A DNA stretch of 64,000 bases from Escherichia coli (GCF_046105845.1 NZ_CP151004.1); one strand, 5' to 3'; positions 19,851-38,500 are shown, counted from the first letter of the stretch. The notes: generated from the sequence alone by a model not told the origin. A program made the numbers and translations.

Positions 19851-20441
19851 TTAAACATCCTGGTGAGGGAAAAGCGTGTTATCGATCAGATCGCACAGGC
19901 AATTTACCGTCAGCATATGCATTTCCTGAATGCGAGCACTACGATGCGAAGGAATGCGGATCTCCACATCCTGTGGCCCTAACAAACCTGCAAGTTCACC
20001 GCCGTCATAGCCGGTTAATGCCACAATGGTCATATCACGCGTAACGGCAGCTTCTACCGCTTTTACAATATCGCGGCTGTTGCCACGGGTGGAAATGGCT
20101 AACAATACATCCCCCGCATGACCCAGCGCCCGCACCTGTTTTGCATACACTTCATCATGTAAGCGATCGTTGGCAATCGCCGTTAAGACAACATTATCAG
20201 TATTTAGTGCAATGGCAGGTAAGCTGGGCCGCTCCGTTTCGAAACGGTTGATCATGCTGGCAGCAAAATGCTGTGCATTGGCAGCGGAAGTTCCATTACC
20301 ACAACAGAGGATTTTGTTGCCATTGAGCAGAGACTGAACCAGCGTCATGGCTGCACGGGAGATGGCATCCGGAAGCGCCTCTGCCGCCGCAATTTGAGTT
20401 TGAATGCTTTCAGTGAAGCAAGCTTTAATTCTTTCTTGCAC
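19851..20441 (-). CDS. diaA: DnaA initiator-associating protein DiaA (SIS domain)
   Basis: 196-aa [24 protein letters not shown]... Confidence 0.95.
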
Positions 20442-20460
20442 GCTAATCCTTAAACCTTAA

Positions 20461-20856
20461 TTATGAGTGGTCATTAAAGGCATCCTTAATCCACTCAACC
20501 TCATTCCCGGTGAAGGCTACCACATCGAACCGGCAATCCACAGTATCAAAACTCCCATTATGACGCGCGAGCCACAAGCGGGCAGTCTGTAATAATTTGT
20601 GTTGTTTGCTGCGGGTCACACTGGCTGCCGCGCCGCCATAAAGCGCAGAGCGGCGGTAACGCACCTCAACAAAAACGGTGGTCCGGCCTTCACGCATTAT
20701 CAGATCGATCTCGCCGCCACGCTCGTTCACGTTAGCGGCGATAAACCGCAGTCCTTTGCCTTCCAGCCAGCGACGCGCTTGTGCTTCCCACGCATCGCCG
20801 GTCTGTTTGGTGGTTAACTGGCGGGGACTACCTGACCTTGTTGGTACTGTAGCCAT
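20461..20856 (-). CDS. yraN: UPF0102 protein YraN
   Basis: 131-aa ORF; start region overlaps the lpoA 3' end. Confidence 0.92.
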
Positions 20857-22850
20857 GATAACTTCCTGTTAATCACGCAATCCGGGTTAGCCGTCAGACT
20901 TCCGGTATTACCGTTGATTTCAAAACCCTGAACCTGGCGCATTTGTGAGAAATGATTTGTCAACGACCAGGCATCGACGCCCATCGCATACATGCGAGCC
21001 AGCGAATAATCGTTGTTCACCGCGCTGAGCGCCTGCTGCATTAACGGCAGATTACCGCCTGCCAGCATCGGGATTTCGCTGTACTGCAAGCCTTCCATCT
21101 CCAGACGGAAATCCGGGCCTGCGGTGCCTTGTGCGCTGCGGGAACTGGCGTACAGCGTTGCACCGCTCTGGCTACCGTTACGCATGGCGATCATCGGTTT
21201 GATAAAAGCGATTTCACCCGGCGTTGCCACAATGTAGACCGCATCGACACGACCGCCATTATTGGTGAACTGGTCATCGGTTGGCGTGGTTTGCAGCGTT
21301 GGATTGTTGGTCGTCATGCCGGAGTCGGTTGTCGCTCTGGGAGTAATCGGGCTACCCGTTAAAGCAATACCAGAACCGCCGTTAACACCCGCGCGTAATT
21401 CGCTGGTGGAACCAAATTTTTGTTGCAGAACGGTGCCGCCACCCAGTTTCTGCCACTCTTGCGCAAACGCATTGGCTACGCGATCGCCCAATGAACTACG
21501 TGGGATCAGCACCAGCGGCGCTTGTTTACCCTGGTCACGAATATGACGCGCAGCATCGCGCGCTTCGTCTTCTGGTGAAAGCGCGAAGTAACAAATATTG
21601 ACGCGGTTTTCGATATTCTCCGGCTGGTTCAGTGCCAGCACGTTCAGCGGGGTGTTGCTCTTCAGCAACTCTTCAACGTTATTTTTCAGCAACGGGCCGA
21701 CCACAATACTCGCGCCATCCTGTTGAACCTGGTTGAGGATCTGGCTAAGTGGTTGTGATGATGTATCGTAGATTTTCAGCTCTGCGGATGGATTCGCAGG
21801 TGCGCTTACCGCTGCGGTGGTTGCCGCCGGGGCGTTTACAGGCACCGGCTGGGCCGCAGGTTGTTCACCGGTCAGATCGCTAACCGAGGCTTGTGCCGGG
21901 CTGGCAACGCCATCCACGGTTTGCGGCTGAGGTTGTTCTGCTACGTCTGCGGCAGGTGCGGCAGCTACCTGAGTCGCCACTGGCTGAGTGCCGATATTTT
22001 TCGCCGCTTCAAAGCCTTGCTGAATAGTGCGACCAAATACCGCTGCCTGGCCATTCAGTGGCAACAGCAGGGCGATTTTGTTGGTCGATGCGGGTTTAAA
22101 CGCTTTTACGTTAACCAACTGCGTTGGCAGCATTTTCGCGCCCGGGTTGTTCGGATAACGTTTCTGCCAGTCGGCGATCCCGGCTTTCATCATGTCGGGA
22201 TCGTTACGGTTATCAAACCAGATGCGCTGCAGATCCAGCCAGCCTTGCAGAATATTTTCGTCGGCATTGATCACCAGCGTATTCGCCTGTTCCTGAGTCA
22301 TGGAGGAGAGCGCCTGCCAGGTGGCGTCAATATTCTGCTGCTTTTCTTTCGCGCCGAGCAGCGGTTCCTGAGCAATTAACGCGCGCAGTAAATCAATGGA
22401 AGGACGCCCCTGGCTGGCATCGATTTTTGCCTGCCAGTAACGCGCTTGCTGGTTTTGTTCTAAATCTGCAGGTGTGATTTTCGCCAGCAAGTTTTGCGCG
22501 CCAGCAAAATCTTTCTGCGCCAGTTTAATCTCTGCCGCCAGCAGTGTTTTCTCGCGACGCTGAGAATCGTTCAGTTCTTGCGGTAGTTGGTTAAACAACT
22601 CCACCGCCTGTCCGGTTTTACCTTCTTTCACCAGTGCACGAATGGCGAGTAATTGCCAGTTGATCCTGGTATCATCAGAACTTTGCTGCATCTGTTGCAG
22701 GTAAAAGGCAGAATCAGCCTGCGCCGTGCCCTGCATATAGGCAGTGGACTGATCGGGAGTATGGGTGCCACAACCGGCGAAAATCAGGGCTGCCAGAACA
22801 ACAGGCAGACAACGCGCGGCTTTCAAACGAGAAAATGTTGAGGGTACCAT
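20814..22850 (-). CDS. lpoA: Outer-membrane lipoprotein LpoA, activator of PBP1A
   Basis: 678-aa product from [27 protein letters not shown] (lipobox); the ORF track's version has 10 extra N-terminal codons. Confidence 0.94.
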
Positions 22851-22914
22851 AATGTATCCAGTGATATTTTTTTTACGCAATGCTCAATATTAAATCGGCA
22901 ATACGGACGACACA

Positions 22915-23775
22915 ATGAAACAACACCAATCGGCGGATAATTCTCAGGGCCAGCTTTACATTGTACCGACGCCAATCGGCAATCTGGCGGATATCACCCA
23001 GCGTGCGTTGGAGGTATTACAGGCCGTTGATCTGATTGCCGCCGAGGATACGCGTCACACCGGTTTATTGCTGCAACATTTTGGGATTAATGCTCGGTTG
23101 TTTGCGCTGCACGACCATAACGAACAACAAAAAGCCGAAACGCTGCTGGCGAAGCTGCAAGAGGGGCAAAACATTGCGCTGGTTTCCGATGCCGGAACGC
23201 CGCTAATTAACGATCCTGGCTACCATCTGGTGCGTACCTGCCGTGAAGCGGGGATTCGCGTGGTGCCGCTACCCGGGCCGTGTGCTGCTATCACTGCGTT
23301 AAGCGCCGCGGGTTTACCATCCGATCGTTTTTGTTATGAAGGCTTTTTACCTGCCAAATCAAAAGGCCGCCGTGATGCGCTAAAAGCCATTGAAGCGGAG
23401 CCGCGCACGCTGATTTTTTATGAATCTACCCACCGTCTGTTAGATAGCCTGGAAGATATCGTTGCGGTATTAGGCGAATCCCGCTACGTGGTTCTGGCGC
23501 GTGAGCTGACCAAAACCTGGGAAACCATTCACGGCGCGCCCGTTGGCGAGCTGCTGGCGTGGGTCAAAGAAGATGAAAACCGTCGCAAAGGCGAAATGGT
23601 ACTGATTGTCGAAGGCCATAAAGCACAGGAAGAAGACTTACCCGCCGATGCCCTGCGCACGCTGGCGCTGCTACAGGCAGAACTGCCGCTGAAAAAAGCG
23701 GCGGCGCTGGCGGCAGAAATTCACGGCGTGAAGAAAAATGCGCTATATAAGTATGCGCTGGAGCAGCAGGGGTAA
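22915..23775 (+). CDS. rsmI: 16S rRNA C1402 2'-O-ribose methyltransferase RsmI
   Basis: 286-aa ORF; divergent from lpoA. Confidence 0.95.
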
Positions 23776-23790
23776 GCCTGCTGCTGGAAA

Positions 23791-24885
23791 TTACCTGACA
23801 ATAACCGTAATGGTAGCTGATGCTTTAAAAGGTCCGGTCGACAATACTCCACCGACCAGATTTACAGGATAAGCCTGAAAGTGTGTTGTTCCTGCTCCGG
23901 TTTTATCTAGCAGAATGATGCCTGGATTAAATGGAACATCTACTTGCCCTTTAGTCACATCCATAAGGCGGATACCAACATCAGGGACATCATCACTTTC
24001 ACGGCGTCTTGCGACTAAATTATATTGATTAACATAATCTGAACCTTCAATTTTCATATACAAGCTATTGTTAATTTGGGACATATCACCGCAATCATAG
24101 GTAATATCAAAGCTTACTGGAGTGTAACCTGTTGGCATCTGATTTTGTAGGGTGAAACGTTGAGCGCTAATAAATCCAAGATTTACATTAATGGTATCAC
24201 CTTGATTTATTTTGCAACTTTGAGGTACCGTAATTCGGCCTTGAATATAGATTTTAGCAATATCCTTAATGGGACGTGGTGCAGCAGAAGTACTTGTCCA
24301 CGCAGCCTGGACTGAAGCAATATGTGTTTCAGGGATATTCAGTTCACCCAAAAATGGCGTAGTGACGTATAGTGTAATCGTTGTATTTTTACCAATAGAA
24401 AAGTCTGATCCCCGAACATTGGCTGGGTCGGCCATGCACACACTATTGTTTTTGTTAGCATGGTAAGTACCAGTACCGTCTCTAAGCGGTGTATATGAAT
24501 TGCTTGGAACCATAACAGATGGATTACCAGGAATGTCGTTTATTTGGGTTTTAATATCCAGATTAGAATTCAGTCGATAGAAATCTCGTTCTTTACCTTG
24601 AGTTATTAATGCAGATGTTACTGTATAATACAGGTTAACTTTACTACCTGCCGGACAAGAGCAGTTTAAGGTGTAATTGCTCCCAATAGCTGAATTCTTT
24701 ACCACATAATCTTTGCCGGCAACATTATTATCTTGTGTCCAGTCCTCAGAAGCATCTGTCCGAAATTCACCTGTTCCTTCACAATCACCTGTTGCTGCCT
24801 TTACCGATGGGCTAAGTAACAGGGGGGAGACCACGGCAGCAATAGACAATAGTTGTTTAATCATTTTGAAACTCCCTAAAGACAC
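23791..24885 (-). CDS. yraK: Fimbrial adhesin-like protein YraK (chaperone-usher fimbriae)
   Basis: 364-aa ORF with signal peptide; last gene of the yraHIJK operon. Confidence 0.9.
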   Translation of the reverse strand: MSLGSFKMIKQLLSIAAVVSPLLLSPSVKAATGDCEGTGEFRTDASEDWTQDNNVAGKDYVVKNSAIGSNYTLNCSCPAGSKVNLYYTVTSALITQGKERDFYRLNSNLDIKTQINDIPGNPSVMVPSNSYTPLRDGTGTYHANKNNSVCMADPANVRGSDFSIGKNTTITLYVTTPFLGELNIPETHIASVQAAWTSTSAAPRPIKDIAKIYIQGRITVPQSCKINQGDTINVNLGFISAQRFTLQNQMPTGYTPVSFDITYDCGDMSQINNSLYMKIEGSDYVNQYNLVARRRESDDVPDVGIRLMDVTKGQVDVPFNPGIILLDKTGAGTTHFQAYPVNLVGGVLSTGPFKASATITVIVR

Positions 24886-27398
24886 TTTGCCGAATCACGA
24901 ATAATGGGGGTAGTGATGTTCGCGCTATCGTTCAGACTAAACGTAAACTGGCATTGTTGGTTTATTCCACTTCCCCAGCGAACCTTCCAGGTTTGTGGTT
25001 TTTTATTAATGCCGGAGAGATAAATAACTCCAGCTTCATCGACAATACTTTGTTGGAATTGGCCTTCATTACTGGCAACAGCACCAAAAGGAATGGGCTT
25101 ACCTTGGACGTCAGTTAGTGCTAATAGCACTCTGTGACCGGTTTGGGCATTAAAATTTGCAACGACAGCGGCGCCCTGTCCTGGCACGACAATCTTTGCA
25201 GTCTCCTGGACATCTACATTATCCGGCATTGTAGTAGTGTCTAAGGCAATACGATTTTCCTGATAAGCCGTTAAATAAGGGATGACGGCGTAACCAAAGT
25301 AATCGGTGGCAATACCAGGGTAATTTTTAACCCGAATATTAGATGCACCCTGGGTATCAATTACGGCAAATGTATTACCCAGCGGTTGTGAGAGAGTCAC
25401 CCCATGGGGGTGTGCGACAATTCCACCTGAAAGACCATAGCTGAACTGGCGACTGTTTGACGTGTAATCATAGTTGGCGTTAACAGTGCCATAAGCAGAG
25501 CGGTAACTACCAGAAAGCGTACTGCCGTTATTATTATTTTCCTGGTCCATTCGTTGTTTAAAGCTGTAACTTAATCGGTTGTCATCAAGGAAAGAACCGG
25601 TAATGCCAGTCTCATATTGAGTTGAACGGTATTTTTCATCAGTGACACGAAACGTAGCTTGTGCATTAGGTAACCAACGATCCAGAGGCAGACTAATACT
25701 AAAAAAGATTGCCCTATCACTATCGCGATCGGAATAATCTGTGAATTGTCCACTCACGCTGTAGCTGATGCCGGCAAGATAGCCGTTCAGTCCGGCAGAA
25801 TAATTGCGATCATTTTGTTCTGCTCCCCAGTATTCTCGTTGTGCACCTGAAATATAAAAACTGAGATTATCAGTCAGCGTTTGGTTAACGTTGAAAATCG
25901 CTTCGCTGCGTTGGCGATTGTTTACATTAATATCACGTTGGTTTGCGTCGGCAAAGGTAAAAAAAACTGAGTTGGAATAGCGCGAGTAACTAAGAGAAAG
26001 GCTTGTTCCTGTTTCGGGTATATCTTTAATATATTGAAAACGTAAACCTTCCCCGGTAAATTTTTCTTTATTTTCTAACTTCGTTTTGGCATAAGTTAAA
26101 TCAACGGAAAGTGCGCCCAAAATACTCAATGTGCTACCGATGCCTAATGCTGCTGCTTGATAATCCTTGGATCCAGTTACCCCACCATAAAGAGTGAAAA
26201 TATTAGTAAGGCCGTAAAATGCTGTGCCTTCGATGAACTCTGGTTCTTTACTATTAGATGACGGGTCTGCACGAAATCGCCCTGCTGTCATGCTATATAA
26301 AAGATGGCCTGGCCGTTGCATAACAGGAAGTGCTGAAAACGGCTGAGTAAATTGGCGAACGGTACCATCGGCTTCTTCAATTGTAACGTCTAAATCACCG
26401 CTAAATGAGGATGGATAGAGATCGTTGATTTCGAATGCTCCCGCCGGGACATTGCTTTGATAAATTGTATAGCCATTCTGGCGGATGGTGACTATTGCGC
26501 TGGTATTGGCAATCCCACGGATAATCGGTGCAAAACCTCGTAAGCTATTCGGTAACATGTTCTCGTCAGAATAAATTCTGGCACCCGTAAACTGAACGCT
26601 GGAAAAAATTGTGCCATCAGTGGCGCTTTCACCAAGCACTAATTGCGACTTTAAACTCTTAATATCACGCTGCAACCAACTATTAATACTATCCCAGCGA
26701 GTCTCATTACTGCTATGTGTCCACGTGGAGTAATTACGCAACCGCCATGGGCCGATATTGACTCCATTTTGCATATTGAGATAAAACCTTTCATTCTTTT
26801 CGCTGTTACTATAATAACTGTTCGAGCCACTAAAACTGTAATTGGTAAACAATACTGGAATACCATGATCCCACCTGGCGGGATCAACATAACCAGAAGG
26901 GTCACGCCGCAGGGCAATTTGTGGAATGTCCAGGATGAGAGTGCTATGGTTGAGGTCTATCTTTGTTTTGCTTCCAGGTACGGTTTTGGATAAATCTGTT
27001 ATCAGGGCGTTGTCATCAAGAGTATTTAGTGAATTTATTTCGTCAACTTTAAAACCCAATTCGCGTAAAAGACCAACGGTAAGCTGTGGGCGAATTTCTC
27101 CATTATCATCTATAGCAAAAGTGATTTTTCTCTGAGTCACCTTTTTTTTATTGATAACGATCTCAACATCATAATCACCGGGACTATGAGTATTTTTACC
27201 GGAGAAAGCAGATAAATCGCTTGCCTTTTGACCACTCTTTGTTGTTTCCAGCAATGAGGGATCAAAATAGTAATTGTCAGCAATGGCATGAAGAGGGGAC
27301 AGAACTCCACCAGTAATAAGAACAGGTAATACTGTTTTTAACCAGCAGGAAAGTGGTTTCATAACAGGTAAAGAGATGCATTTTATTTTGGTTTTCAT
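24876..27398 (-). CDS. yraJ: Fimbrial outer-membrane usher YraJ
   Basis: 840-aa usher-family protein. Confidence 0.93.
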   Translation of the reverse strand: MKTKIKCISLPVMKPLSCWLKTVLPVLITGGVLSPLHAIADNYYFDPSLLETTKSGQKASDLSAFSGKNTHSPGDYDVEIVINKKKVTQRKITFAIDDNGEIRPQLTVGLLRELGFKVDEINSLNTLDDNALITDLSKTVPGSKTKIDLNHSTLILDIPQIALRRDPSGYVDPARWDHGIPVLFTNYSFSGSNSYYSNSEKNERFYLNMQNGVNIGPWRLRNYSTWTHSSNETRWDSINSWLQRDIKSLKSQLVLGESATDGTIFSSVQFTGARIYSDENMLPNSLRGFAPIIRGIANTSAIVTIRQNGYTIYQSNVPAGAFEINDLYPSSFSGDLDVTIEEADGTVRQFTQPFSALPVMQRPGHLLYSMTAGRFRADPSSNSKEPEFIEGTAFYGLTNIFTLYGGVTGSKDYQAAALGIGSTLSILGALSVDLTYAKTKLENKEKFTGEGLRFQYIKDIPETGTSLSLSYSRYSNSVFFTFADANQRDINVNNRQRSEAIFNVNQTLTDNLSFYISGAQREYWGAEQNDRNYSAGLNGYLAGISYSVSGQFTDYSDRDSDRAIFFSISLPLDRWLPNAQATFRVTDEKYRSTQYETGITGSFLDDNRLSYSFKQRMDQENNNNGSTLSGSYRSAYGTVNANYDYTSNSRQFSYGLSGGIVAHPHGVTLSQPLGNTFAVIDTQGASNIRVKNYPGIATDYFGYAVIPYLTAYQENRIALDTTTMPDNVDVQETAKIVVPGQGAAVVANFNAQTGHRVLLALTDVQGKPIPFGAVASNEGQFQQSIVDEAGVIYLSGINKKPQTWKVRWGSGINQQCQFTFSLNDSANITTPIIRDSAKCL

Positions 27399-27450
27399 TA
27401 TTCCCTTATTTCCTTATTCCCTGTCATATGTATAAGTTTTGTATAAATAA

Positions 27451-28143
27451 TTATGGCAAAGTAGATGTATATGTATCCGTATTACCGCCATAGTCATTAA
27501 TGGCTGCCCATTTCACGATGTTTTCTGAAACTAATGGCAATGGTAATTGCTTATGTTCACCCGGTGCAATAAATTCTATTTTATCGGTAAAGTCGGTTTT
27601 TCCTACAGCCAGTCCTGAAAAAACAACGTAATATGCCGAAGGATTATATATCTCCAGTTGGTTGTTCTTCCTTGAGAATTTTAGGCCTTTATAGGCATCT
27701 GAAGGTCTACCGTCCATTTCTGATGGTCTGTAAAAGAGTTTAATGCGTGTTTTAAATACTAAAGTAAGTAGGTTCTTATCTTGCGTTTCTTTTTTATCGA
27801 CAGCAGGAATTGCACGGACGTTAATATAAAAAAGTGATTCTTTATCTCTCGGTAGATTGCCATCGGTTTTAATGATACGCAATGAAGAGTTGTCTCCGGC
27901 ATCAAGACGAAATAGCGGAGGGGTAATAATAAAAGGGCCGCGAGAAGAGTCATAGATATTTTCAACCCACGATTGTAATAAATATGGTGGTTTATCACTT
28001 CGATTAGTGACCGGCAATGCAGCTTCTTTTTTACTACCATCATAAACTACACGCGTTCTTTCCAGAAGGATTCCACCAGCCAGACTCTGGTTCACCCAGC
28101 CAGCTAATAGAAAAAGTATTGCAAACGATTTTTTAATCTTCAT
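27451..28143 (-). CDS. yraI: Periplasmic fimbrial chaperone YraI (PapD-like)
   Basis: 230-aa ORF with signal peptide. Confidence 0.92.
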
Positions 28144-28232
28144 CTTCTGTTACCGCTACGAAATAAAATTGTCTCTTTAACAGCAGACCGCTAAAGAGAC
28201 AAAATAAAGGATTATGAACTAATGACTAGTTA

Positions 28233-28805
28233 TCAACGATAATCAAGAGTTACATCCACAGTAGCATTAGCTTCACCGGGTTTGATTTTATCGGCTGTTG
28301 TGGTTGACACATAGTAAGCCGCTAAATCTAAATTCATCGTGGAACCAGTAATTGGGAAAGATATCTTTGGAACACTAAGTTTGTTAATTGCCATAGGTGT
28401 TTGAGCATCTTTTTCAATCCGAATACCAACACCTGTAGCCGCGGTATCTGGGTCCATACTTGTAACAGCAACTAACTCATTGTTATCACCGGTAGTTGCT
28501 CCGTTACGCGTTTCCAGCCATAACTGGAAAGACGCATCTTTAGTACCATCAATGTGATCCCAGGCTACCGTTGGGCAGTTTTTCAACGGAATAGTGAAAG
28601 GGATCGTAGGGGATTTATCCCCTTTAAACTTAAACTGATTAGCGGCATAGTGACCTAATTCAACATAAACTGTATCACCATTCGCAAATTCACAGACAGT
28701 GCCAAGAATTTCACCCGTGAATTCAATTTTTCCATCGGTTGCGGAGGCGCTACCGGCAAAAAGCGCCAGCAGGCCAGCGGCAACTGTCTTAGCTACTTTA
28801 CTCAT
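28233..28805 (-). CDS. yraH: Major fimbrial subunit YraH
   Basis: 190-aa fimbrial subunit with signal peptide; preceded by about 1 kb of AT-rich DNA. Confidence 0.9.
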   Translation of the reverse strand: MSKVAKTVAAGLLALFAGSASATDGKIEFTGEILGTVCEFANGDTVYVELGHYAANQFKFKGDKSPTIPFTIPLKNCPTVAWDHIDGTKDASFQLWLETRNGATTGDNNELVAVTSMDPDTAATGVGIRIEKDAQTPMAINKLSVPKISFPITGSTMNLDLAAYYVSTTTADKIKPGEANATVDVTLDYR

Positions 28806-29286
28806 AAGATAACCTTAGTCCTTGTAACTAGTACTTCGAATAAATATGAAATGTAAGATTCTTTTCAACAACAGAAACGATTATACCTACTGAAGCATGG
28901 AGTGGATAAAAAATAGTCATTTTTAAGAATATATTTATATTTCCTGAAGCTATTTAAAAACCATATATATTAGTATTGATTATGTTATGATGTGAATGTA
29001 GTAAGACTAAAAGGGTAATTATAAGTATAATTCAATGGGTTGATAGCAGTTATTGTAATGATAATCACTAATATTGACTTTTGTAGTTATGAGTTGTGAA
29101 CTGTAAGAATAAAATGTAATATGTTATGACGTTTAATAGTTGATGTTGTTAAATATAAGCTTAATTAAACTATATGATATTGAAAAAGTGGGGATGGATA
29201 ACTAAAACTATTTTGCCTGTATATACGAGCAGTGGAAGGGGTTTGCACAGGAAGCCCTTTCTTCTGTTGAACAGGCCTCCCCTACG

Positions 29287-29401
29287 ATGGTTGCAGAACG
29301 GGCGTTCTTCTGCGAGTGCTCTGACACGTTATCGATAGCCTTCACTGGCCGTGAATCAGACGATTATCAATACGAGTTAAGAGAATATTTGACAATGTCA
29401 T
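29287..29401 (-). pseudogene. Relic of a paralogous mannose-family PTS operon: 19-codon IIB-like start followed by a stop and an IID-like internal fragment
   Basis: Minus strand reads ATG ACA TTG TCA AAT ATT CTC TTA ACT CGT ATT GAT AAT CGT CTG ATT CAC GGC CAG TGA (MTLSNILLTRIDNRLIHGQ*), close to the agaB N-terminus; the next ~55 nt resemble agaD sequence near 30867-30945. Confidence 0.6.
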
Positions 29402-29454
29402 GTTTTTATTTCCTATCATCCATTTCACCTTTATTTGGTTTATCAGAGGGCAAT

Positions 29455-29482
29455 AAAAAAGGCAGATAATTAATTATCTGCC
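29455..29482 (-). terminator. Perfect-palindrome hairpin with flanking A/T runs (probable terminator for minus-strand transcripts)
   Basis: aaaaaa-ggcagataatt/aattatctgcc. Confidence 0.45.
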
Positions 29483-29852
29483 TGATGTGTCATGCTTTTT
29501 TTGCATCCGTTCTCATGTTTTTACCAGAAAATATCTTTGTGTGCCGAAGTTAAAACGTAAGTAATTTCACCGTTTTGCACATAGTGGCAGCAACCTTCAA
29601 TAATGATTCTGGCATTGCAAGCAAAATGATTGACCCATTCGGTCGCTGTGTGTCCGCTTTTTTCGTTGGCGGGTTTTGTTCTGATTACTGAACAACGTAA
29701 CGTGTTTATCTATAAATTAAACAGTGAACATAATTTCATTTTTAAGTGAAATTATGTTCAAGTTGATTACAGATTACTTAACTTAAAATATAGTTAATGA
29801 AGTTAAAGTATTGGTTTTGGCGTATTAGTCGTATTTCTGATAAAGAAAGTGG

Positions 29853-30617
29853 TTATGCTTTGCTTCTCTCTATTAAACAAATAAAGTTACTGTGCAGCCA
29901 TAAAAACGAAGCCGGGATAGCGGTGGAGACTTTAGCCGTGAGAAAACGTTCTGTCGCATCCTGCTTTCCTTCGCCAGTCACCAGTAACAAAACTTCGCGG
30001 GCACTGAGAATATCCTTCAGGCCTAAGGTGATCCCACGAATCACGGGACGGCCCGCGGTTTTTAACATCTCATGTTGCTGTGTTCTGGCATCAAGTTGAC
30101 TGATATGGCAGGCCGGTTGCAGGCTTTCTCCCGGTTCGTTCAGCCCAAGATGACCGTTTTTCCCCAACCCGAGAACGCATAAATCCAGACCGCCTTTGCG
30201 CGCAATCAGGTTCGTTACCCGTTCGCACTCTGTCTCATTTATCTCTTCGGAGCGAAAGCTGATGAGCTGGTCTTCACGCAGCCCCAGCGGCTGCACGATA
30301 TGCTGTTGTAGGAAAGTTTCGCAGGTGCCAGGCATCGTTAATGGCAGATCCACCCATTCGTCGAGCTTCACGAAGGTGAGCTGGCTGACATCAACCTGCT
30401 GCTGGTGGATTTTTTCTACCAGATAATGATACGTCAGTAATGGCGTGGCTCCGGTCGCCAGGCAAATCACGGCATCCGGTTTGCTACGGATCACGGCCAA
30501 TAAATATTCGCTGGCACGTTCACTTAACGCCGTATAGTTTTCAACTTGTTGAAGGGTTTGCACAGGATGAAATTCCTTAAGTAAAGAGGCACCGCCAGAC
30601 GCGGTGCCTCGTTCCAT
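29853..30617 (-). CDS. agaI: Galactosamine-6-phosphate deaminase/isomerase AgaI
   Basis: 254-aa ORF of the NagB/AgaI family; last gene of agaS-kbaY-agaBCDI. Confidence 0.92.
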   Translation of the reverse strand: MERGTASGGASLLKEFHPVQTLQQVENYTALSERASEYLLAVIRSKPDAVICLATGATPLLTYHYLVEKIHQQQVDVSQLTFVKLDEWVDLPLTMPGTCETFLQQHIVQPLGLREDQLISFRSEEINETECERVTNLIARKGGLDLCVLGLGKNGHLGLNEPGESLQPACHISQLDARTQQHEMLKTAGRPVIRGITLGLKDILSAREVLLLVTGEGKQDATERFLTAKVSTAIPASFLWLHSNFICLIERSKA

Positions 30618-31409
30618 TTACAAAATGCCGAATGCGGAACAAACAATAGAGAGCACAAAAGTCACGCCGATTAACAGCACCGGATGCGCTTTTTTCACCC
30701 GCAGGAAGTAATACATCAGCAGGGTGTAGGCCATCGGTAAAATGTTCGGGAAGACTTTATCGAAGAAATCCTGTTGCAGCGCGACGCTGTGGGTACTGTC
30801 GATGGCAAACGATGTCACCACGTTAATATGCACATACGAAGCGATCAGCCCGCCGATTACCGTGATCCCGAGGATGGTTGCCGAACGAGCAATCATCTGC
30901 GAGTTCTCTCGCACTTTATCGATCGCCTTCACGCCGACTGAATAACCGACGTGGGTCCAGCCGACGCGCAGGAAGAAGATAAGCAGGTAAACGGCGAAAA
31001 ATAGAATCGGCCCCAGCAAGTTTCCCTGGCTGGCAAATGATGAGCAAATTCCCGCCATAATCGGCAATAAGGTAAACCAGAAAATCGCATCGCCAATCCC
31101 GGCGATTGGGCCAAACAGTGCCACTTTGAGGCCTTTAATGGTGTCGCGGTTTTCTCCTTTTTCTTCCATCGAAATTAATAACCCCATCAGGAATCCGACC
31201 AGATTCGGGTGGGTATTAATAAATTCGAGGTTATCTTTCATCGCCGCGCTTAGGCCCGGTTTGTCGTCCTTATAAATCTTTTTCAGGATCGGCAACATCG
31301 CCCAGGTAAAACCGCCCGCCTGCATCCTTTCGTAGTTAAAGCTTGCTTGTAGCAGTGACGAACGAAAGCCCAGACGGGTGATATCTTTTTTACTGATTTC
31401 AGATCCCAT
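30618..31409 (-). CDS. agaD: PTS galactosamine-specific EIID component AgaD
   Basis: 263-aa product from MGSEISKKDITRLGFRSSLL; the 317-aa ORF in the track over-extends into agaC. Confidence 0.93.
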   Translation of the reverse strand: MGSEISKKDITRLGFRSSLLQASFNYERMQAGGFTWAMLPILKKIYKDDKPGLSAAMKDNLEFINTHPNLVGFLMGLLISMEEKGENRDTIKGLKVALFGPIAGIGDAIFWFTLLPIMAGICSSFASQGNLLGPILFFAVYLLIFFLRVGWTHVGYSVGVKAIDKVRENSQMIARSATILGITVIGGLIASYVHINVVTSFAIDSTHSVALQQDFFDKVFPNILPMAYTLLMYYFLRVKKAHPVLLIGVTFVLSIVCSAFGIL

Positions 31410-32202
31410 TGCTGTAGTCCTCTTCTTCATTTTTACTGGCAACGGGCTGCGGTTGCGCTTGCTGCCGGGATTTCGCATTGAAAAACTCATACACCGCAAA
31501 GCCTGCGCCCAGTACGGCAACCGGCAACAGGTTGCTGACCTGGATGTAGCAAACAAACAGGAAGCCGGCAATCAGGTAAGGGATATATTGCGCTTTGAAC
31601 ATCACGCGCAGCAGCAAGCCAAAACCAACGGCAGGCAGAATACCGCCAGCCACTTCAAAGCCGTGGGTCAGCCAGGCGGGCATCGCTTTCACCAGCGCCT
31701 GCATCGCCCCTTGTGCCAGGTAAGTACAGAGGAAAGCAATCACCGCATACGCTGAAGCAACGATGAGCATCGTTGTCCAGTTAAGTCGGGAAAACGCTGC
31801 CGTATCCGCTTCTTTCGCGCATTTATCGGCTTTGGTCATAAATAATGAGAAAGCAGAATAGAAGAACAGAATGACATACTGCATTAACAAACTAAACGGC
31901 AGGCCAAGACCAATTGCTGTTTTGGCATCAACGCCCGTAGACCATGCAATGACGGTGGTCATCAGACCCGCCATAATCGGGTTGGGCGGCTGAACACCAC
32001 CTGCAGGGGTTAATCCGGCGAAAGCCAACTCTGTCAGACCACCGGTAATTAAGCCAGTCTGAATATCACCGAGAATAGCGCCAGTTAGGGTACAAACGAT
32101 TATCGGGCGGAATAAAAATAAGGCTTCCAGCCAAAAATCAATCCCCAGAACGAAAACTAACGCCGCCAGGGATAATCCCTGAAGTAGGGTTATTTCATGC
32201 AT
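31399..32202 (-). CDS. agaC: PTS galactosamine-specific EIIC component AgaC
   Basis: 267-aa membrane protein. Confidence 0.93.
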   Translation of the reverse strand: MHEITLLQGLSLAALVFVLGIDFWLEALFLFRPIIVCTLTGAILGDIQTGLITGGLTELAFAGLTPAGGVQPPNPIMAGLMTTVIAWSTGVDAKTAIGLGLPFSLLMQYVILFFYSAFSLFMTKADKCAKEADTAAFSRLNWTTMLIVASAYAVIAFLCTYLAQGAMQALVKAMPAWLTHGFEVAGGILPAVGFGLLLRVMFKAQYIPYLIAGFLFVCYIQVSNLLPVAVLGAGFAVYEFFNAKSRQQAQPQPVASKNEEEDYSNGI

Positions 32203-32240
32203 TTTTATTACCTCAAACCAATATTAAGGCGATTTTAGAT

Positions 32241-32717
32241 TTAGTCAGGGATTTGTTCTTTTTGATCGCCAGGGACGTCCTGAATGAAAACATTCACGCC
32301 ACGTTGTTTAATAAAACGTAAGTCCGTGAGATCCTGGTCATCGACATAAACTTTACTGCTGATTTGCTTTTTCCCTTCCGAGAAATGCATATTGCCGACG
32401 TTGACATCTTTCAGGTCAATACCACCTTCTACCAATTTACGTACCGTTTGTGGCGTACGGCAAATCAGGAAGATCTTTTGATGCGGTGCAGCTTTGCCGA
32501 TGACGTTAATGGTTTTTTCGATAGTAAAGAAACGAATGCCAAAGCCGTAGGTTTCCGCGGTAATACCCATTAATTTCTGTTGAATATCATCGTTAGCGAC
32601 AACATCATCCACGACTACCAGCAGATTTGCACCGATGGTGGATGTCCAGGTCACGCCAACCTGACCGTGAACCAGACGGTTATCAATACGGGTTAAGAGA
32701 ATATTTGGACTGCTCAT
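32241..32717 (-). CDS. agaB: PTS galactosamine-specific EIIB component AgaB
   Basis: 158-aa ORF MSSPNILLTRIDNRLVHGQVGVTW (phospho-His region). Confidence 0.94.
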   Translation of the reverse strand: MSSPNILLTRIDNRLVHGQVGVTWTSTIGANLLVVVDDVVANDDIQQKLMGITAETYGFGIRFFTIEKTINVIGKAAPHQKIFLICRTPQTVRKLVEGGIDLKDVNVGNMHFSEGKKQISSKVYVDDQDLTDLRFIKQRGVNVFIQDVPGDQKEQIPD

Positions 32718-32883
32718 TGTGTAATCCTCACCATAAAGTTGAATAATATAATTTTTTTAAATATATTATTATTGCGATATTTTACTGATGTATTTATTAA
32801 GGTTTAGTTATCTCCTTTACCATTAAGGCACTCCCCGATATTAATCGGGAAGTACATTGGGATAAATCATAAAAAAATAATGA

Positions 32884-33756
<873 letters not shown>

Positions 33757-34911
33757 TTATGCCTGCCACGGATGAATGATTACGCCTTGCACCACGCGGT
33801 TAACGGTGCCACTGGCTGATGGGGTATCCGGCGTATTGCCCATGTGCAGCGACTGCATCAGTGCAAACGTCTGGGCGTACATCAGGAAGCAAAATGCCTG
33901 CTCAACGTCGATAAAGTGACGTGACGGCGGCAGGATAATATGTGGACCGGCAGCAACGATGTCTGTGCTTTCCGCGGCGATGGCGATTACGCGCATTGCC
34001 TGGTTGTCACGACGAAGTTCAGCCAGCAGATCAAGATCATACTGACGGGTGTAAGGGTGGCTGGAGACAAATACCACCACCAGCGTTTCGTTATCGACCA
34101 GCGATTTCGGGCCATGACGGAATCCGGTCGGGGAATCATAAAAGGCCGCCAGTTTACCCGCCGTCAGTTCCAGTACTTTCAGCGCCGACTCGCGTGCTGC
34201 GCCCTGTAAGCCACCGCTGCCGAGATAAACGATCCGTTTCCACGGTGCGTAACCAAACACACCTTCGCTGAAATCGCCCAGTGAGGTCAGGATCGCCTGG
34301 CAACGATCCGCCACGTCGCGGAAGCTCTGGCTATTGATCGTCTCAGGTGCGAAAACCGCGAGGCAGCTGGCCATCATGGTGGTAATGCTGCTGGTCATCG
34401 CAAAGCCGCGATCGTGCGTTTCTGCGGGCATCAGCAGGGCAAACGCGTTATCGCTGTTGATCGCGTTTTGGTAAAGAGCGCCCGCTTCGTTGCAAGTGAT
34501 CGGCAGGTGATAGCATTCTGGTACAAATTGATTTGCCAGTTCCACGGCAGCGACGCTTTCTGGGCTGTTGCCGGATCGACCGAAGGAGATCAACAGCAGC
34601 GGATGAGCTGGATTCAGGTAGTCCATCGGATTAGTGACCAGATCGGTGGTCGGTACGGCGCTGAAGTTTTTACCGGTATGGCTGGCGAGCCACGGCGCGA
34701 TGATGTCACCGATAAATGCCGAGGTTCCGGCTCCGGTCAGGATTACCCGCAGATTCTCTTTGCGCAGTAACGGTTCAAGGAAGTTATTGAGCGCGGAACG
34801 TAGCGCGTCGATGTTGGTGAGTGAACGGATCCATGCGCGAGGCTGATGGCGGATCTCTTCTTCAGTCCATGTACCGGTTGCGGCAGCAGCAGGGGTGTAA
34901 TTTTCTGGCAT
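33757..34911 (-). CDS. agaS: SIS-domain sugar-phosphate isomerase/deaminase AgaS
   Basis: 384-aa ORF with two SIS domains. Confidence 0.94.
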   Translation of the reverse strand: MPENYTPAAAATGTWTEEEIRHQPRAWIRSLTNIDALRSALNNFLEPLLRKENLRVILTGAGTSAFIGDIIAPWLASHTGKNFSAVPTTDLVTNPMDYLNPAHPLLLISFGRSGNSPESVAAVELANQFVPECYHLPITCNEAGALYQNAINSDNAFALLMPAETHDRGFAMTSSITTMMASCLAVFAPETINSQSFRDVADRCQAILTSLGDFSEGVFGYAPWKRIVYLGSGGLQGAARESALKVLELTAGKLAAFYDSPTGFRHGPKSLVDNETLVVVFVSSHPYTRQYDLDLLAELRRDNQAMRVIAIAAESTDIVAAGPHIILPPSRHFIDVEQAFCFLMYAQTFALMQSLHMGNTPDTPSASGTVNRVVQGVIIHPWQA

Positions 34912-35130
34912 AACTCAATCCTTAGTCTGATGAACTTGACGTCGGGCGTTGTCGCTTTCGCTTACCTTTCGTTTCATTTCACTTGGTGATGTCTTTCGTT
35001 GATTAAAATCTATAGAAAAGAAACTGAAAGTTCAATGGAGAAAAAAGAAATAAAACGAAATTTGTGATCGTTGAAAGAAAAGACAAGGGAAGATTAAAGG
35101 ATTGCGTGATAACGTCGCTATGTTCACCGA
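34912..35130. promoter_or_regulatory. agaS promoter region with repeated CTTTC/GAAAG AgaR-operator-like motifs
   Basis: cgctttcgcttacctttcgtttcatttcac, tctttcgttg, aaagaaactgaaagttc, aaaacgaaatttg, gttgaaagaaaag. Confidence 0.6.
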
Positions 35131-35132
35131 TT

Positions 35133-35186
35133 GCCGGATGCGGCGTACCGTAGGTCGAAGAAGACGCGTCAGCGTCGCATCCGACA
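35133..35186. repeat. Pair of REP-like palindromes in the agaS-agaA spacer
   Basis: gccggatgcggcgtaccgtaggtcg and gacgcgtcagcgtcgcatccgaca resemble REP units. Confidence 0.6.
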
Positions 35187-35211
35187 CCCTGCACAGAGCA
35201 CAACGAAAGAA

Positions 35212-35246
35212 AAAGAAAGGCCTTACGGGGGAAGTGAAGGCCCAAT
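35212..35246 (-). terminator. Candidate intrinsic terminator downstream of agaA (end of the kbaZ-agaVWEFA operon)
   Basis: Minus strand: ggcctt-cacttcccccgt-aaggcc followed by tttcttttt. Confidence 0.4.
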
Positions 35247-35260
35247 AAAGGAGCAAACCA

Positions 35261-36394
35261 TCAAAACGAAGCTAATTGACCCTGAATCCAGATTTGTTGC
35301 ACATGCAGCCCGCTATCCAGCGCAACGACGCTGGCGCGTTTGCCCGGTTTAAGCGATCCCAGAACATCATCAACACCCAGCATACGCGCCGGATGCAGCG
35401 ACGCCATATGGATGGCTTCCGCAGGCGTTACGTCCGTCAACTCGACCATGTTGCGCACTGCCGCATCGACAGACAGCGTACTGCCCGCCAGCCCACCGGA
35501 CGCGGTACGGACAACGCCACCGTGCATCTGCACTTCTTCACCACATAACGTATAGCGACCATCCGGCATCCCTGCTGCCTGCATCGCGTCGGTGATGAGC
35601 ACGATTCTCTCTTTCGCACAGCAACAACACAGCGACATCGCCGCCGGATGCACATGATTACCATCGGCTATCAGTTCCAGCCAGGCGCGCTTGTCCGTTA
35701 ATCCCGCGCCAACCATTCCCGGTTCGCGGTGATGTAAACCTGTCATCCCGTTATAGCAATGCACCAAGCCGTCGGCACCAGCGTCAAACGCGGCACGGGT
35801 TTGTTGCCAGGTCGCCGCGCTATGCCCCAGCATCACCCGTACGTTTTGCTGTTTAAGATGGCGGATGGCCTGCAATGCCCCTTCTTTTTCCGGTGCCAGC
35901 GCTACCACGCGCAAGGTGTGCTGAGAAACGGCAATCAACTGATCCAGCTCGGCAATTTCCAGCTCGCGAAACAGCTCCGGCGGATGCGCGCCTTTATTCT
36001 GCGGCGTGAAGTATGGTCCTTCGAGATAACTCCCCAGCACTTGCGCACCAGGTCCGCCGCGTTGGCAACGTTGAGCAATACGTTTCAGCGCCGCATGAAT
36101 GGTATTAAGCGGAGCGGTTACGGTGGTCGGTAACCAACTGCCGACACCTTCGCGTGCTTTGTGCATTGCCAGCTTGTCGAGCACATCCGGCGCGTCATCC
36201 ATTACATCAACGCCCGCACCACCGTGTACATGGGTGTCGATGTAAGCGGGGCAGAGCAGTTCCGCATCGCGTTCAGTCACGCCCACTGGAATCGGTTCGA
36301 TTGCTGCGATGACACCGTCAGCAATACGCAACTGATGGTCATCGAGCCATCCCTCTTCAGTCAGCAGCCTTCTGGCGCGCAGAACGTGTGTCAT
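35261..36394 (-). CDS. agaA: N-acetylgalactosamine-6-phosphate deacetylase AgaA, full length
   Basis: 377-aa product from MTHVLRARRLL; start ATG overlaps the agaF stop (ATGA); metal-binding HxH motif (DTHVHGG) present; intact, unlike the truncated K-12 allele. Confidence 0.92.
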   Translation of the reverse strand: MTHVLRARRLLTEEGWLDDHQLRIADGVIAAIEPIPVGVTERDAELLCPAYIDTHVHGGAGVDVMDDAPDVLDKLAMHKAREGVGSWLPTTVTAPLNTIHAALKRIAQRCQRGGPGAQVLGSYLEGPYFTPQNKGAHPPELFRELEIAELDQLIAVSQHTLRVVALAPEKEGALQAIRHLKQQNVRVMLGHSAATWQQTRAAFDAGADGLVHCYNGMTGLHHREPGMVGAGLTDKRAWLELIADGNHVHPAAMSLCCCCAKERIVLITDAMQAAGMPDGRYTLCGEEVQMHGGVVRTASGGLAGSTLSVDAAVRNMVELTDVTPAEAIHMASLHPARMLGVDDVLGSLKPGKRASVVALDSGLHVQQIWIQGQLASF

Positions 36395-36825
36395 ATTCCT
36401 TCCTCGACCGGACATTCTTCATGGCAGCGGCCTAACTCGTCCACCAAACTGGTCAGCCCACGGTGTCCACACTCCAGCGCCTGCACACGGAACTCTTCAC
36501 CGCTTAACCCTTCGCGCTCCAGCACCATCTCCAGTAGCAGTTGCAAATTGGTGCCGGTGATCACTTCACAGCCCGGTTTTTGTATCGCCAGCGTTGAAGC
36601 TACGCGAAACGGCGTGCCGCCCAGCAAATCCGTCAGAAAAACAATGCCGTCTTCACAATCCAGTTGGGCGAAGGCCTCTTCAAGCTGCGATGTAAGCAGC
36701 GCGGTGCTTGAGGTTTCCGGAAAATCGATGGCGATAAACTGCGATTGCTCGCCGAGGATTTGCTTCATTGCTTTTTCCATGCCGCTGGCAAATCCGCCAT
36801 GCCCTGTCAAAATAATACTTAACAT
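36391..36825 (-). CDS. agaF: PTS N-acetylgalactosamine-specific EIIA component AgaF
   Basis: 144-aa ORF MLSIILTGHGGFASGM...; absent from K-12. Confidence 0.93.
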   Translation of the reverse strand: MLSIILTGHGGFASGMEKAMKQILGEQSQFIAIDFPETSSTALLTSQLEEAFAQLDCEDGIVFLTDLLGGTPFRVASTLAIQKPGCEVITGTNLQLLLEMVLEREGLSGEEFRVQALECGHRGLTSLVDELGRCHEECPVEEGI

Positions 36826-36842
36826 CTAATACCTCATTGTAT

Positions 36843-37727
36843 TTAAAGGAAATGACAGAATTTACCGACGATGCCGAGAACCACGGTCACTGCAATCAGG
36901 CGCAGCGGACTCCAGCCGCGGCGTACCAGCCAGAACATGGTCAGGGTGTAGACCAGCGGTAAGAAGGCAGGCATCAGTTTGTCGATAACATCAGCCTGTA
37001 ACTTAACCACTGCGTCGCCCGCTGTGATTTCCAGCGTGGTGCTTAAACGAACATAGGTTGCCACCAGCGCGCCGATTACCGTCATCCCAACGATAGACGC
37101 AGCATGGCCGACTTTTTTGGTATTCGCTTTAATGAGTGGAATCGCCGCCACGCCCATGCGGTAAGCATAATGCGCCAGACCAAAACGCAGCCCCAGGTGT
37201 ACCACGTTGAACAGCACAATAAAGACGACTGCGCCAAGAATGGAGCCTTGCAATGCCAGACTGGCTCCAATCCCGCCACAAATCGGCAGTAGCGTTAGCC
37301 AGAACATTGCATCGCCAATCCCGCCAAGCGGCGCACCGACGGCAATTTTGGTGCTCTGAATACTGTTAACGTCCTGCTTAGAACGCTCCATCGCAAGGAT
37401 AATGCCGATAACAAACGTCACCAGAAACGGATGGGTATTGAAGAAACCCATATGCCCCTTCATGGCGCGCGCCAGGTCGCGTTTATTAGTGTGGATCTTT
37501 TTCAGAGCAGGCAGCAGACCGTACAACCAGCCAGAAGCCTGCATACGTTCGTAGTTAAAAGACGCTTGTAACAGCATGGAACGCCAGGCGACGCGGTTGA
37601 TATCTTTTTTCGTCAGCTCCGCGCCAATGCTCTGATCTTCATACACGTTTTCATTGACGCCAGTCAGCAATGTTTCTTCGTTTTCACTGACGTTCGGCAG
37701 GGTGGTTTGATTAGATGCCATCTTCAA
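36843..37727 (-). CDS. agaE: PTS N-acetylgalactosamine-specific EIID component AgaE
   Basis: 294-aa ORF paralogous to AgaD; absent from K-12. Confidence 0.92.
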   Translation of the reverse strand: MKMASNQTTLPNVSENEETLLTGVNENVYEDQSIGAELTKKDINRVAWRSMLLQASFNYERMQASGWLYGLLPALKKIHTNKRDLARAMKGHMGFFNTHPFLVTFVIGIILAMERSKQDVNSIQSTKIAVGAPLGGIGDAMFWLTLLPICGGIGASLALQGSILGAVVFIVLFNVVHLGLRFGLAHYAYRMGVAAIPLIKANTKKVGHAASIVGMTVIGALVATYVRLSTTLEITAGDAVVKLQADVIDKLMPAFLPLVYTLTMFWLVRRGWSPLRLIAVTVVLGIVGKFCHFL

Positions 37728-38490
37728 ATTCCTCTTTCTGTGCCGCAGGTTGAGTCGGTTCAGGAGATTTACGCAGCAGATCGATCAGCGCCATCGCCAG
37801 CGCGGCGGCAGCAATAGCCAGCACCGGTAACTTGAGCCAGGCGGCGGCAACAAAGCCCAGGATGAAGTAGGGGATGTAGACGTTTTTCATCATGATTTTC
37901 AGCAGCACGGCAAAACCGATTGCTGGCATGATGCCGCCCGCGACGCCGAGGCCGTCGATTAATCGTTGCGGCAGGACATCAATGATGGTTTTGGCATGTT
38001 CTGCGCCGAAGTAGATAGGCAGGAAAGCGCAGAGAAAATAGAAAGTGCCGAGTGCCAGCAATGCCAGATAGTTCACGCGTTCAATGCCGCGTGTATCGGC
38101 GTTCTCCGCCATCCGGTCGCAGCGAGACATCACGCCAGACATCACCGAGAACAGGAAGGTAATCCCCATCTGTACTGCAACAGCGAAAGGTACGGCGACA
38201 CCGACCGCGACATCGGGTTTCACGCCAGTAGTAATGGCAAACGCCGTGCCGACGATAGTACCGATAATCACGTTAGGCGGTTGTGCGCCTGCCAGCGGGG
38301 CCAGCCCCATCCACACCAGTTCCAGCGTACCGCCGGTTAAAATACCGGTATGCAGATCGCCAAGTACCAGCCCGACCAACGGGCCGAGGACCACCGGGCG
38401 GTGCATATGGGTTAGGCCGTTAAACATATCCAGGCCAGCGATAAAGGCGATAATGCCCAACGCGAATGCCTGCAACAGACTGATTTCCAT
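37711..38490 (-). CDS. agaW: PTS N-acetylgalactosamine-specific EIIC component AgaW, full length
   Basis: 259-aa ORF paralogous to AgaC; intact here, truncated in K-12. Confidence 0.92.
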   Translation of the reverse strand: MEISLLQAFALGIIAFIAGLDMFNGLTHMHRPVVLGPLVGLVLGDLHTGILTGGTLELVWMGLAPLAGAQPPNVIIGTIVGTAFAITTGVKPDVAVGVAVPFAVAVQMGITFLFSVMSGVMSRCDRMAENADTRGIERVNYLALLALGTFYFLCAFLPIYFGAEHAKTIIDVLPQRLIDGLGVAGGIMPAIGFAVLLKIMMKNVYIPYFILGFVAAAWLKLPVLAIAAAALAMALIDLLRKSPEPTQPAAQKEEFEDGI

Positions 38491-38500
38491 GATGAATCCC

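Follow-up and report, generated by a model that had tools for sequence, protein, structure and literature searches.

A rare and deeply divergent Yra-group chaperone-usher operon in the agaI-rsmI slot of Escherichia coli

What is the fimbrial operon that lies between agaI and rsmI in an Escherichia coli genome whose neighbouring genes are those of K-12, and is it silent? The operon occupies positions 23791-28805 of a stretch of 64,000 nucleotides (GCF_046105845.1, NZ_CP151004.1), hereafter called the window. A first-pass annotation of this sequence had named it yraHIJK, after the K-12 operon found in the same place, and had considered it probably silenced. Our analyses favour a different reading, which we judge likely: the four genes form an intact operon that belongs to the Yra (Gamma*) group and is present as a rare divergent haplotype, the whole cassette was recombined in from a non-coli Escherichia-like donor, and the operon is probably silenced by H-NS.

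The slot is that of K-12 yraHIJK (b3142-b3145). The neighbouring genes match those of the K-12 locus (agaBCDI towards one end, rsmI-lpoA-yraN-diaA towards the other), the four-gene order is the same, and the products have 190, 230, 840 and 357 residues versus 194, 231, 838 and 363 in K-12. The flanking genes are 97.6-100% identical to those of K-12 in amino acid sequence, with numbers of synonymous substitutions per site (dS) of 0.02-0.10; for rsmI, the values are 100% in amino acids and 98.0% in nucleotides. In contrast, the fimbrial genes are only 53-64% identical to their K-12 counterparts in nucleotides (~59% for the usher gene), and their synonymous sites are saturated, with proportions of differing sites (pS) of 0.69-0.84. 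The amino acid identities to YraH, YraI, YraJ and YraK are 52, 65, 58 and 50%, respectively (48-65% as an overall range). The transition is sharp at both ends: homology breaks off within the last agaI codons on the left (29872/29871), and on the right it extends no further than the rsmI stop codon (23775/23776). The operon body has a GC content of 41.2%, and the GC content at third codon positions (GC3) is 0.29-0.37 in its genes, versus 0.46-0.62 in the flanking genes and 0.39-0.48 in K-12 yraHIJK. The features of the cassette and its flanks are as follows, with E denoting the expect value.

23776..29871, no strand assigned: divergent cassette, promoter included (6,096 bp; K-12 homology stops at both ends)
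28233..28805, minus strand: major fimbrial subunit gene, YraH-like (190 residues; Pfam Fimbrial, E 8e-26)
28169..28202, minus strand: intercistronic hairpin in the subunit/chaperone gap (15 pairs followed by a U run; terminator-like site)
27451..28143, minus strand: periplasmic PapD-like chaperone gene, YraI-like (230 residues; PapD_N and PapD_C)
24876..27398, minus strand: outer-membrane usher gene, YraJ-like (840 residues; PapC_N, Usher and PapC_C)
23791..24864, minus strand: two-domain tip adhesin gene (357 residues from the ATG at 24864)
22915..23775, plus strand: rsmI, conserved right flank, convergent with the adhesin gene (Pfam TP_methylase and RsmI_C)
29853..30617, minus strand: agaI, conserved left flank (Pfam Glucosamine_iso; 97.6% amino acid identity to K-12)

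Positions 23791-28805 are exactly filled by four consecutive open reading frames (ORFs) that run in the direction 28805..23791, i.e. on the minus strand, which the first-pass annotation had not specified. No internal stops were found in any of the four. The Fimbrial family (PF00419) is represented in the first and last gene products. The subunit has a signal peptide that ends in ASA and is followed by TDG, and it harbours a penultimate Tyr residue (..LDYR). In the chaperone, the matches to PapD_N (E 9e-39) and PapD_C (E 5e-11) delineate the two domains typical of PapD-like proteins. Its best relative of known structure is FimC (E 3e-41), and in the alignment with FimC the basic cleft residues of PapD/FimC are represented, with the equivalent of Arg8 conserved and that of Lys112 replaced by Arg, as is also the case in K-12 YraI. 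The three domains of the usher are matched over their full lengths, namely PapC_N (PF13954, E 1.5e-37), Usher (PF00577, E 5e-194, positions 1-549 of 549) and PapC_C (PF13953, E 3.5e-17).

The start of the adhesin gene can be placed at two positions. An ORF finder proposed a GTG at 24885, giving a protein of 364 residues, but this start is less likely than the ATG at 24864, which is the start given by RefSeq for strain MEW. The N-termini of the subunit, the chaperone and the usher resemble signal peptides, as does that of the adhesin if it starts at the ATG. Pfam recognizes only the C-terminal domain of the adhesin as Fimbrial (residues 212-363 of the 364-residue form). The AlphaFold2 model, built on 35 homologues and with a mean predicted local distance difference test score (pLDDT) of 88, is composed of a lectin-like domain (residues ~24-204) and a pilin domain (residues 205-357). 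Foldseek searches of the Protein Data Bank (PDB) with this model returned full-length two-domain tip adhesins, with LpfD as the top match (5afo, E 2e-19), followed by CupB6, FimH and PapG. Based on its genes and on the predicted model, the feature is a classical chaperone-usher operon of the FimD/PapC type, with an usher, a chaperone, subunits and a two-domain adhesin. The proposal that a complete subunit-chaperone-usher-adhesin operon with intact ORFs is present was thus borne out by the four stop-free ORFs, the Pfam matches and the adhesin model.

To see how common this operon is, we surveyed 5,426 complete E. coli genomes, in which yraJ genes were counted as K-12-type at 95% nucleotide identity or more. 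The K-12-type yraJ is present in 3,509 of them (~65%) and missing from ~35%. The window-type operon was found in a single genome (~0.02%), that of strain MEW, isolated from an ivory gull, with 99.4% identity. When the window locus was used as a megablast query, only its flanks were covered in 5,424 genomes. In strain NRZ14408, the one strain examined in this respect, no operon occupies the slot: only 49 bp separate rsmI from agaI, whose 3' end differs over ~60 bp. Three discrete states thus exist at the yra slot of E. coli: the common type, no operon and the window type. In a large protein collection, the window-type usher belongs to a 23-member cluster at 90% identity, all named members of which are labelled E. 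coli. An identical usher protein is encoded in GCA_946407305.1, whose DNA is 99.44% identical to that of the window over 8.5 kb. Farther along, positions 30000-50000 of the window are collinear, at 98.7-98.9% identity, with genomes that harbour the full agaVWEF-nagA cluster together with prlF-yhaV, the gar genes and rnpB. Among complete E. coli genomes, none exceeds ~98.9% in that segment, and the lineage of the window is thus poorly represented among them.

The closest relative that we found is the operon of Escherichia sp. MOD1-EC7003, which also occurs in a small number of entries labelled as E. coli or Shigella flexneri. It occupies the same agaI-rsmI slot with the same architecture, and its proteins are 84% (usher), 86% (chaperone), 72% (subunit) and 67% (adhesin) identical to those of the window. 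Nevertheless, the two cassettes are only 83-85% identical in nucleotides, and the MOD1-EC7003 spacer upstream of the operon is 360 bp long and devoid of gene relics. None of the 5,426 complete E. coli genomes has the MOD1-EC7003 type. The gene order in that strain is kbaY - phosphotransferase system (PTS) EIICB - aminotransferase - agaB; a stretch of 865 bp without a called gene is found between its agaD and agaI genes.

More distant relatives include an usher with 72% identity encoded on a Logan contig in a different gene context, and ushers of the Klebsiella oxytoca, Citrobacter, Kluyvera and Salmonella salamae types, with 62-66% identity (65-66% for K. oxytoca and Citrobacter). The Yra-like operon of K. 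oxytoca also abuts rsmI-lpoA, which indicates that the association of the operon with this slot is old. In an usher tree, a single neighbour-joining tree rooted on UshC and without bootstrap support, the clade formed by the window, MOD1-EC7003 and the Logan contig joins the Klebsiella, Citrobacter, Kluyvera and S. salamae types. K-12 YraJ is found on a separate branch with the Citrobacter murliniae type, and the window usher is thus not its nearest neighbour. The operon is therefore a rare, deeply divergent member of the Yra (Gamma*) group, a known kind of chaperone-usher fimbriae. The label yraHIJK remains appropriate for the agaI/rsmI slot and the H-I-J-K gene order, but it does not fit the protein identities, the saturated synonymous sites, the tree or the occurrence in one complete genome versus 3,509. 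The main text of Wurpel et al. 2013 contains no discussion of Yra variants.

The other described Gamma* member of E. coli is UshABCD, with UshC as its usher (ECSF_0165; EPEC, i.e. enteropathogenic E. coli, strain E2348/69, and sequence type ST131) (PMC5717340). It has the same subunit-chaperone-usher-adhesin layout and, according to that work, shares the usher subfamily. We considered whether the window operon might be UshABCD and rejected this identity, since the latter is found at the mrcB-fhuA locus, its usher is 36% identical to that of the window, and its adhesin has no detectable sequence similarity. LpfD-like adhesins have been reported in the Ush/Yra clade (PMC5717340), and LpfD (PDB 5afo) is the best structural match to the predicted adhesin over its whole two-domain architecture. 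In contrast, the two proteins share only 21% sequence identity with a template modelling score (TM-score) of 0.50, and the gene content of the lpf operon differs. No receptor can be inferred for the modelled adhesin from this match.

The two domains of the adhesin have diverged unequally. The N-terminal domain is 38% identical to that of K-12 YraK and 62% identical to that of MOD1-EC7003, while the corresponding values for the C-terminal domain are 62 and 71%. That the N-terminal domain is the most divergent part is expected if receptor specificity differs, and with 38% identity to the receptor-binding domain of YraK it probably binds a different receptor. By analogy with the family, the 190-residue subunit and the 357-residue adhesin would be exported by the Sec machinery and capped in the periplasm by the PapD-like chaperone. 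Polymerization would then proceed through the usher by donor-strand exchange, and the predicted product is a fibre tipped with an LpfD-like two-domain adhesin.

The hairpin between the subunit and chaperone genes may contribute to the balance of these components. It has a calculated energy of -19.7 kcal/mol in the orientation of transcription (28202..28169), with a z-score of -7.5. Strong hairpins followed by a U run are present at the subunit/chaperone gap in all six Yra-like operons compared, K-12 yraHIJK included, although the sequences are unrelated in K-12 and K. oxytoca. By analogy with precedents in the pap and fim operons, the hairpin of the window operon is probably a partial terminator and/or a stabilizer of the mRNA, through which the amount of subunit relative to the assembly machinery would be set. 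Located 3' of the subunit gene, it would probably keep the subunit mRNA in excess over the chaperone and usher mRNA.

We next consider the region between the operon and agaI. The spacer (28806-29852) is 1,047 bp long, versus 400 bp in K-12, where it is without the relics described below. Its GC content of 32.8% is among the lowest 0.9% of 1047-bp windows, the whole 64-kb window having 50.0%. The 395 bp that precede the operon (28806-29200) have a GC content of 25.6%, which is approximately the minimum of the entire 64 kb (0.09th percentile). Positions 29201-29665, which contain gene relics, reach 40.9%. The upstream kilobase had been described as extremely AT-rich; the GC statistics agree with this description, but the region is neither uniform nor a single regulatory region, as part of it consists of relic genes. 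The spacer is a composite of a terminator-like hairpin of agaI, ~470 bp of gene relics and a promoter region, with the following features.

28806..29200, minus strand: promoter and 5' untranslated region (25.6% GC; candidate -10 element TATAAT at 28885..28880)
29280..29401, minus strand: agaB/agaD relic (tblastn E 1e-7 and 5e-6; blastn identities of 82-91% to agaB and agaD)
29460..29483, minus strand: terminator-like hairpin 3' of the relic aminotransferase gene (perfect 12+12 palindrome followed by a T run; -13.7 kcal/mol, z -3.9)
29498..29661, minus strand: aminotransferase relic of the PF00155 type (last ~55 codons, with a frameshift and an in-frame stop)
29725..29760, minus strand: inverted repeat 3' of agaI (TGAACATAATTTCA..TGAAATTATGTTCA; -16 kcal/mol, z -4.9; T-rich tail)

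The promoter-proximal part is homologous to that of K-12. Over ~150 bp (28940..28795), the identity to the region preceding yraH is 71% (149 bp, E 4e-13), higher than the 58% nucleotide identity of the adjacent coding sequence. The conserved blocks are GTATAAT and the region of the Shine-Dalgarno sequence, and GTATAAT is present in all three alleles compared, i.e. those of the window, K-12 and MOD1-EC7003. The candidate -35 element of this promoter, TATCCA, is weak, with 3 of 6 matches. A generic sigma-70 scan yielded 14 promoter-like sites versus 18.5 in shuffled sequences, and it missed the conserved TATAAT because of the poor -35 element. At the opposite end of the spacer, positions 29852-29666 share homology with the first part of the spacer in both K-12 and MOD1-EC7003. 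There, TTGAACATAA..TTATGTTCA is invariant in the spacers of the window, K-12 and MOD1-EC7003, with a longer arm in the window (14 pairs). This inverted repeat is probably the terminator of the aga operon; alternatively, it may be a protein-binding palindrome.

The relics lie between these two parts. An agaB-like gene for a PTS EIIB component has left its first 19 codons (29401..29345), which are joined to codons 160-181 from an agaD-like gene (29345..29280). The aminotransferase relic has 74-75% identity in tblastn to the aminotransferase of Escherichia sp. MOD1-EC7003, and the relic region matches the MOD1-EC7003 locus sequence (226-541) at 78% nucleotide identity over 318 bp. MOD1-EC7003 has an intact aminotransferase-agaB junction, of which the window retains a relic. 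Among the 5,426 complete E. coli genomes searched, the aminotransferase relic was matched in none except MEW. The ~90 bp between the agaD relic and the promoter region (29190-29280) gave no gene match. A small regulator or another gene in the 1-kb spacer was ruled out, since its ORFs have at most 60 codons and those with similarities are the agaB, agaD and aminotransferase fragments. The K-12 operon likewise has no dedicated regulator gene. Rfam searches gave no match in the region (best E 0.9, a snoRNA model).

How did this cassette reach the slot? Import from a non-coli Escherichia-like donor is the most likely history suggested by these sequence comparisons. It is favoured by the aminotransferase relic, since the latter is 78% identical in nucleotides to the gene directly upstream of agaB in MOD1-EC7003 and is otherwise found only in MEW. 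The sharp breakpoints and low GC3 of the cassette argue in the same direction. Furthermore, the cassettes of the window and MEW are 99.8% identical while some of the flanking 500-bp bins differ by 2-3%, which also favours import. Recombination would have brought in the whole 6.1-kb cassette, promoter included, either in place of the earlier content of the locus or to fill it, from a donor similar to a non-coli Escherichia such as MOD1-EC7003. Relics of the aminotransferase, agaB and agaD genes of this donor would have been left in the spacer. When positions 20000-34000 of the window are compared with MEW, the cassette has ~1 mismatch per 500 bp, and 14-17 mismatches per 500 bp are found at 21500 (lpoA) and 30500 (agaI/agaD boundary). 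The flanks thus appear to be mosaic relative to the cassette.

As for expression, silencing of the window operon by H-NS is plausible, mostly by analogy with K-12. The composition is as expected for an H-NS-silenced locus, with the GC contents of the 395-bp region, the spacer and the operon all below that of the window. The promoter region (28806-29200) contains 74% AT, and the frequency of the TpA step is 0.15 versus 0.048 for the window. The agaI/yraH spacer of K-12 is one of 78 'promoter islands' and is bound by H-NS in the chromatin immunoprecipitation data of Kahramanoglou et al. and Oshima et al. (PMC3661553). It also contains an H-NS site listed by genomic SELEX (systematic evolution of ligands by exponential enrichment) (PMC3946193). 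The high-affinity motif TCGATAAATT gives a mixed picture. Single hits with one mismatch lie close to agaI (29709) and within the usher gene (26457), and hits occur at 3.0 per kb in the operon body versus 1.8 per kb in the window, but none with up to two mismatches is present in 28806-29200. The motif is not required for H-NS binding. In regulation, the weakest step of the proposed scheme, transcription would start from the conserved TATAAT with its poor -35 element within this AT-rich DNA, and H-NS-type silencing would probably keep expression low, as for the K-12 operon, until relieved by a specific signal. The expression of K-12 yraH rises when BolA is overexpressed (PMC4337573), which fits the need for a specific signal.

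Other modes of control known for fimbriae were considered. Phase variation by Dam and Lrp as in Pap was rejected, as there is no GATC in 28806-29852. A fim-like invertible promoter is unsupported, since the spacer has no recombinase or regulator ORF and its inverted repeats are weak and AT-rich, none of them bracketing the -10 element. Elsewhere in the window, further AT-rich patches with 28-30% GC are found at 49100-49800 and 51200-51350, on yhaC/yhaB and tdcR as judged by collinearity with NRZ14408. In K-12, the yhaC/yhaB and tdcR regions are H-NS-bound promoter islands (PMC3661553).

Several observations weigh against the combined reading of an imported, intact and H-NS-silenced operon. Regarding regulation, the H-NS binding data pertain to the K-12 spacer, which has a different sequence from that of the window. 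Moreover, the high-affinity H-NS motif TCGATAAATT has no match with two mismatches or fewer in 28806-29200, versus 1.6 in shuffled sequences. Regarding origin, the nucleotide identity to MOD1-EC7003 is only 83-85% over the cassette and 78% over the relic, and this strain is thus at best a relative of the donor. The relic block sits between two K-12-homologous parts of the spacer, which a simple double crossover does not explain. In addition, the dS values of the cassette relative to MOD1-EC7003 (0.82-0.86) are close to those of the flanking rsmI and agaB genes (0.79-0.81), which makes the vertical descent of an old haplotype possible. Finally, the usher is split into proteins of 529 and 293 residues in TA255 and ~14 contigs. 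This points to pseudogenization in a sublineage and indicates that the operon is not kept everywhere.

The alternative that survives best concerns regulation. The operon might not be silenced by H-NS, its AT-rich leader reflecting only the composition of the donor and the relics, and it might instead respond to other factors such as BolA, temperature or cyclic di-GMP, or be moderately constitutive owing to its perfect -10 element. The perfect TATAAT conserved in the window, K-12 and MOD1-EC7003, the lack of a high-affinity motif in the proximal 395 bp and the effect of BolA on K-12 yraH are in line with this possibility. So is the variation of yra mRNA levels among Shiga toxin-producing E. coli (STEC) strains (PMC6033998). 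We nevertheless hold it to be doubtful, given the high AT and TpA contents of the promoter region, the AT-rich operon body and the binding of H-NS to the homologous K-12 spacer. The K-12 yra operon is also generally described as cryptic, after Korea and colleagues in 2010 (as cited in PMC5717340).

Turning back to the origin of the cassette, the haplotype might be ancient and vertically inherited. In that case, the deep allele classes would predate the split of the Escherichia species and would have been kept by diversifying or frequency-dependent selection acting on a surface antigen, the window class having survived in a few lineages of E. coli. The locus is old, as the operon adjoins rsmI-lpoA in K. 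oxytoca too. The MOD1-EC7003 type is found in the same slot, and E. coli itself shows three states side by side, namely K-12 type, window type and no operon. The equal dS values of the cassette and of rsmI/agaB, and the highest numbers of nonsynonymous substitutions per site (dN) being those of the subunit and adhesin genes, would also be accounted for. Nevertheless, this history appears unlikely: near-identity of the cassette in two strains with more different flanks suggests a recent spread, the aminotransferase relic is present in no other complete E. coli genome besides MEW, and the breakpoints are sharp with flanks at within-species identity.

In a more far-reaching view, the agaI-rsmI slot might be a genus-wide site for adhesin cassettes, at which selection keeps several deep allele classes as well as the empty state in Escherichia, the window class having recently introgressed and being in the process of spreading, with a new receptor domain, from one E. 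coli background to another. We propose this scenario only tentatively. Whole operons with their promoters would be swapped by homologous recombination in the flanks, with selection acting on receptor specificity or antigenicity.

It is very unlikely that the operon is a decaying, non-functional remnant whose ORFs remain open by chance and that is heading for loss. Relative to the MOD1-EC7003 type, the dN/dS ratios are 0.09 for the chaperone, 0.10 for the usher, 0.26 for the subunit and 0.27 for the adhesin, with dS of ~0.85, and the last two genes have the highest dN of the four. Such ratios reveal purifying selection and argue that the genes are functional. No ORF is interrupted in any of the full copies examined, which are those of the window, MEW, GCA_946407305.1 and the MOD1-EC7003 type. 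The domains are fully covered, the equivalent of Arg8 is kept in the chaperone, and the adhesin model is confident. These features outweigh the split usher of TA255 and related contigs, an upstream spacer full of gene relics, the empty slot of NRZ14408 and the lack of K-12-type yraJ in ~35% of complete genomes.

Lastly, the reading implied by the first-pass label, namely K-12's cryptic yraHIJK with ordinary strain variation, can be dismissed as almost certainly wrong in spite of the shared position, gene order, gene sizes and promoter-proximal homology, since it is already refuted by protein identities of 48-65% and saturated synonymous sites between flanks that are 97-100% identical, by the 3,509 K-12-type yraJ genes being all at least 95% identical to one another in nucleotides while the window usher gene, at ~59%, is missed by megablast, and by variants of other genera falling between the window usher and YraJ in the tree.

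Our understanding of chaperone-usher fimbriae is unchanged by this operon, which does not represent a new kind of system, and its interest is modest and lies in E. coli population genomics and annotation. For annotation, the position-based name yraHIJK is wrong here, and the proteins should not inherit the knowledge gathered on K-12 Yra. This applies above all to adhesin specificity, as the receptor domain is 38% identical. The conservation of the core promoter and 5' untranslated region across otherwise saturated alleles designates this region as a place to look for shared control. For population genomics, the sharp breakpoints together with the apparent scar of donor genes make this a neat instance, among fimbrial loci, of probable cassette replacement.

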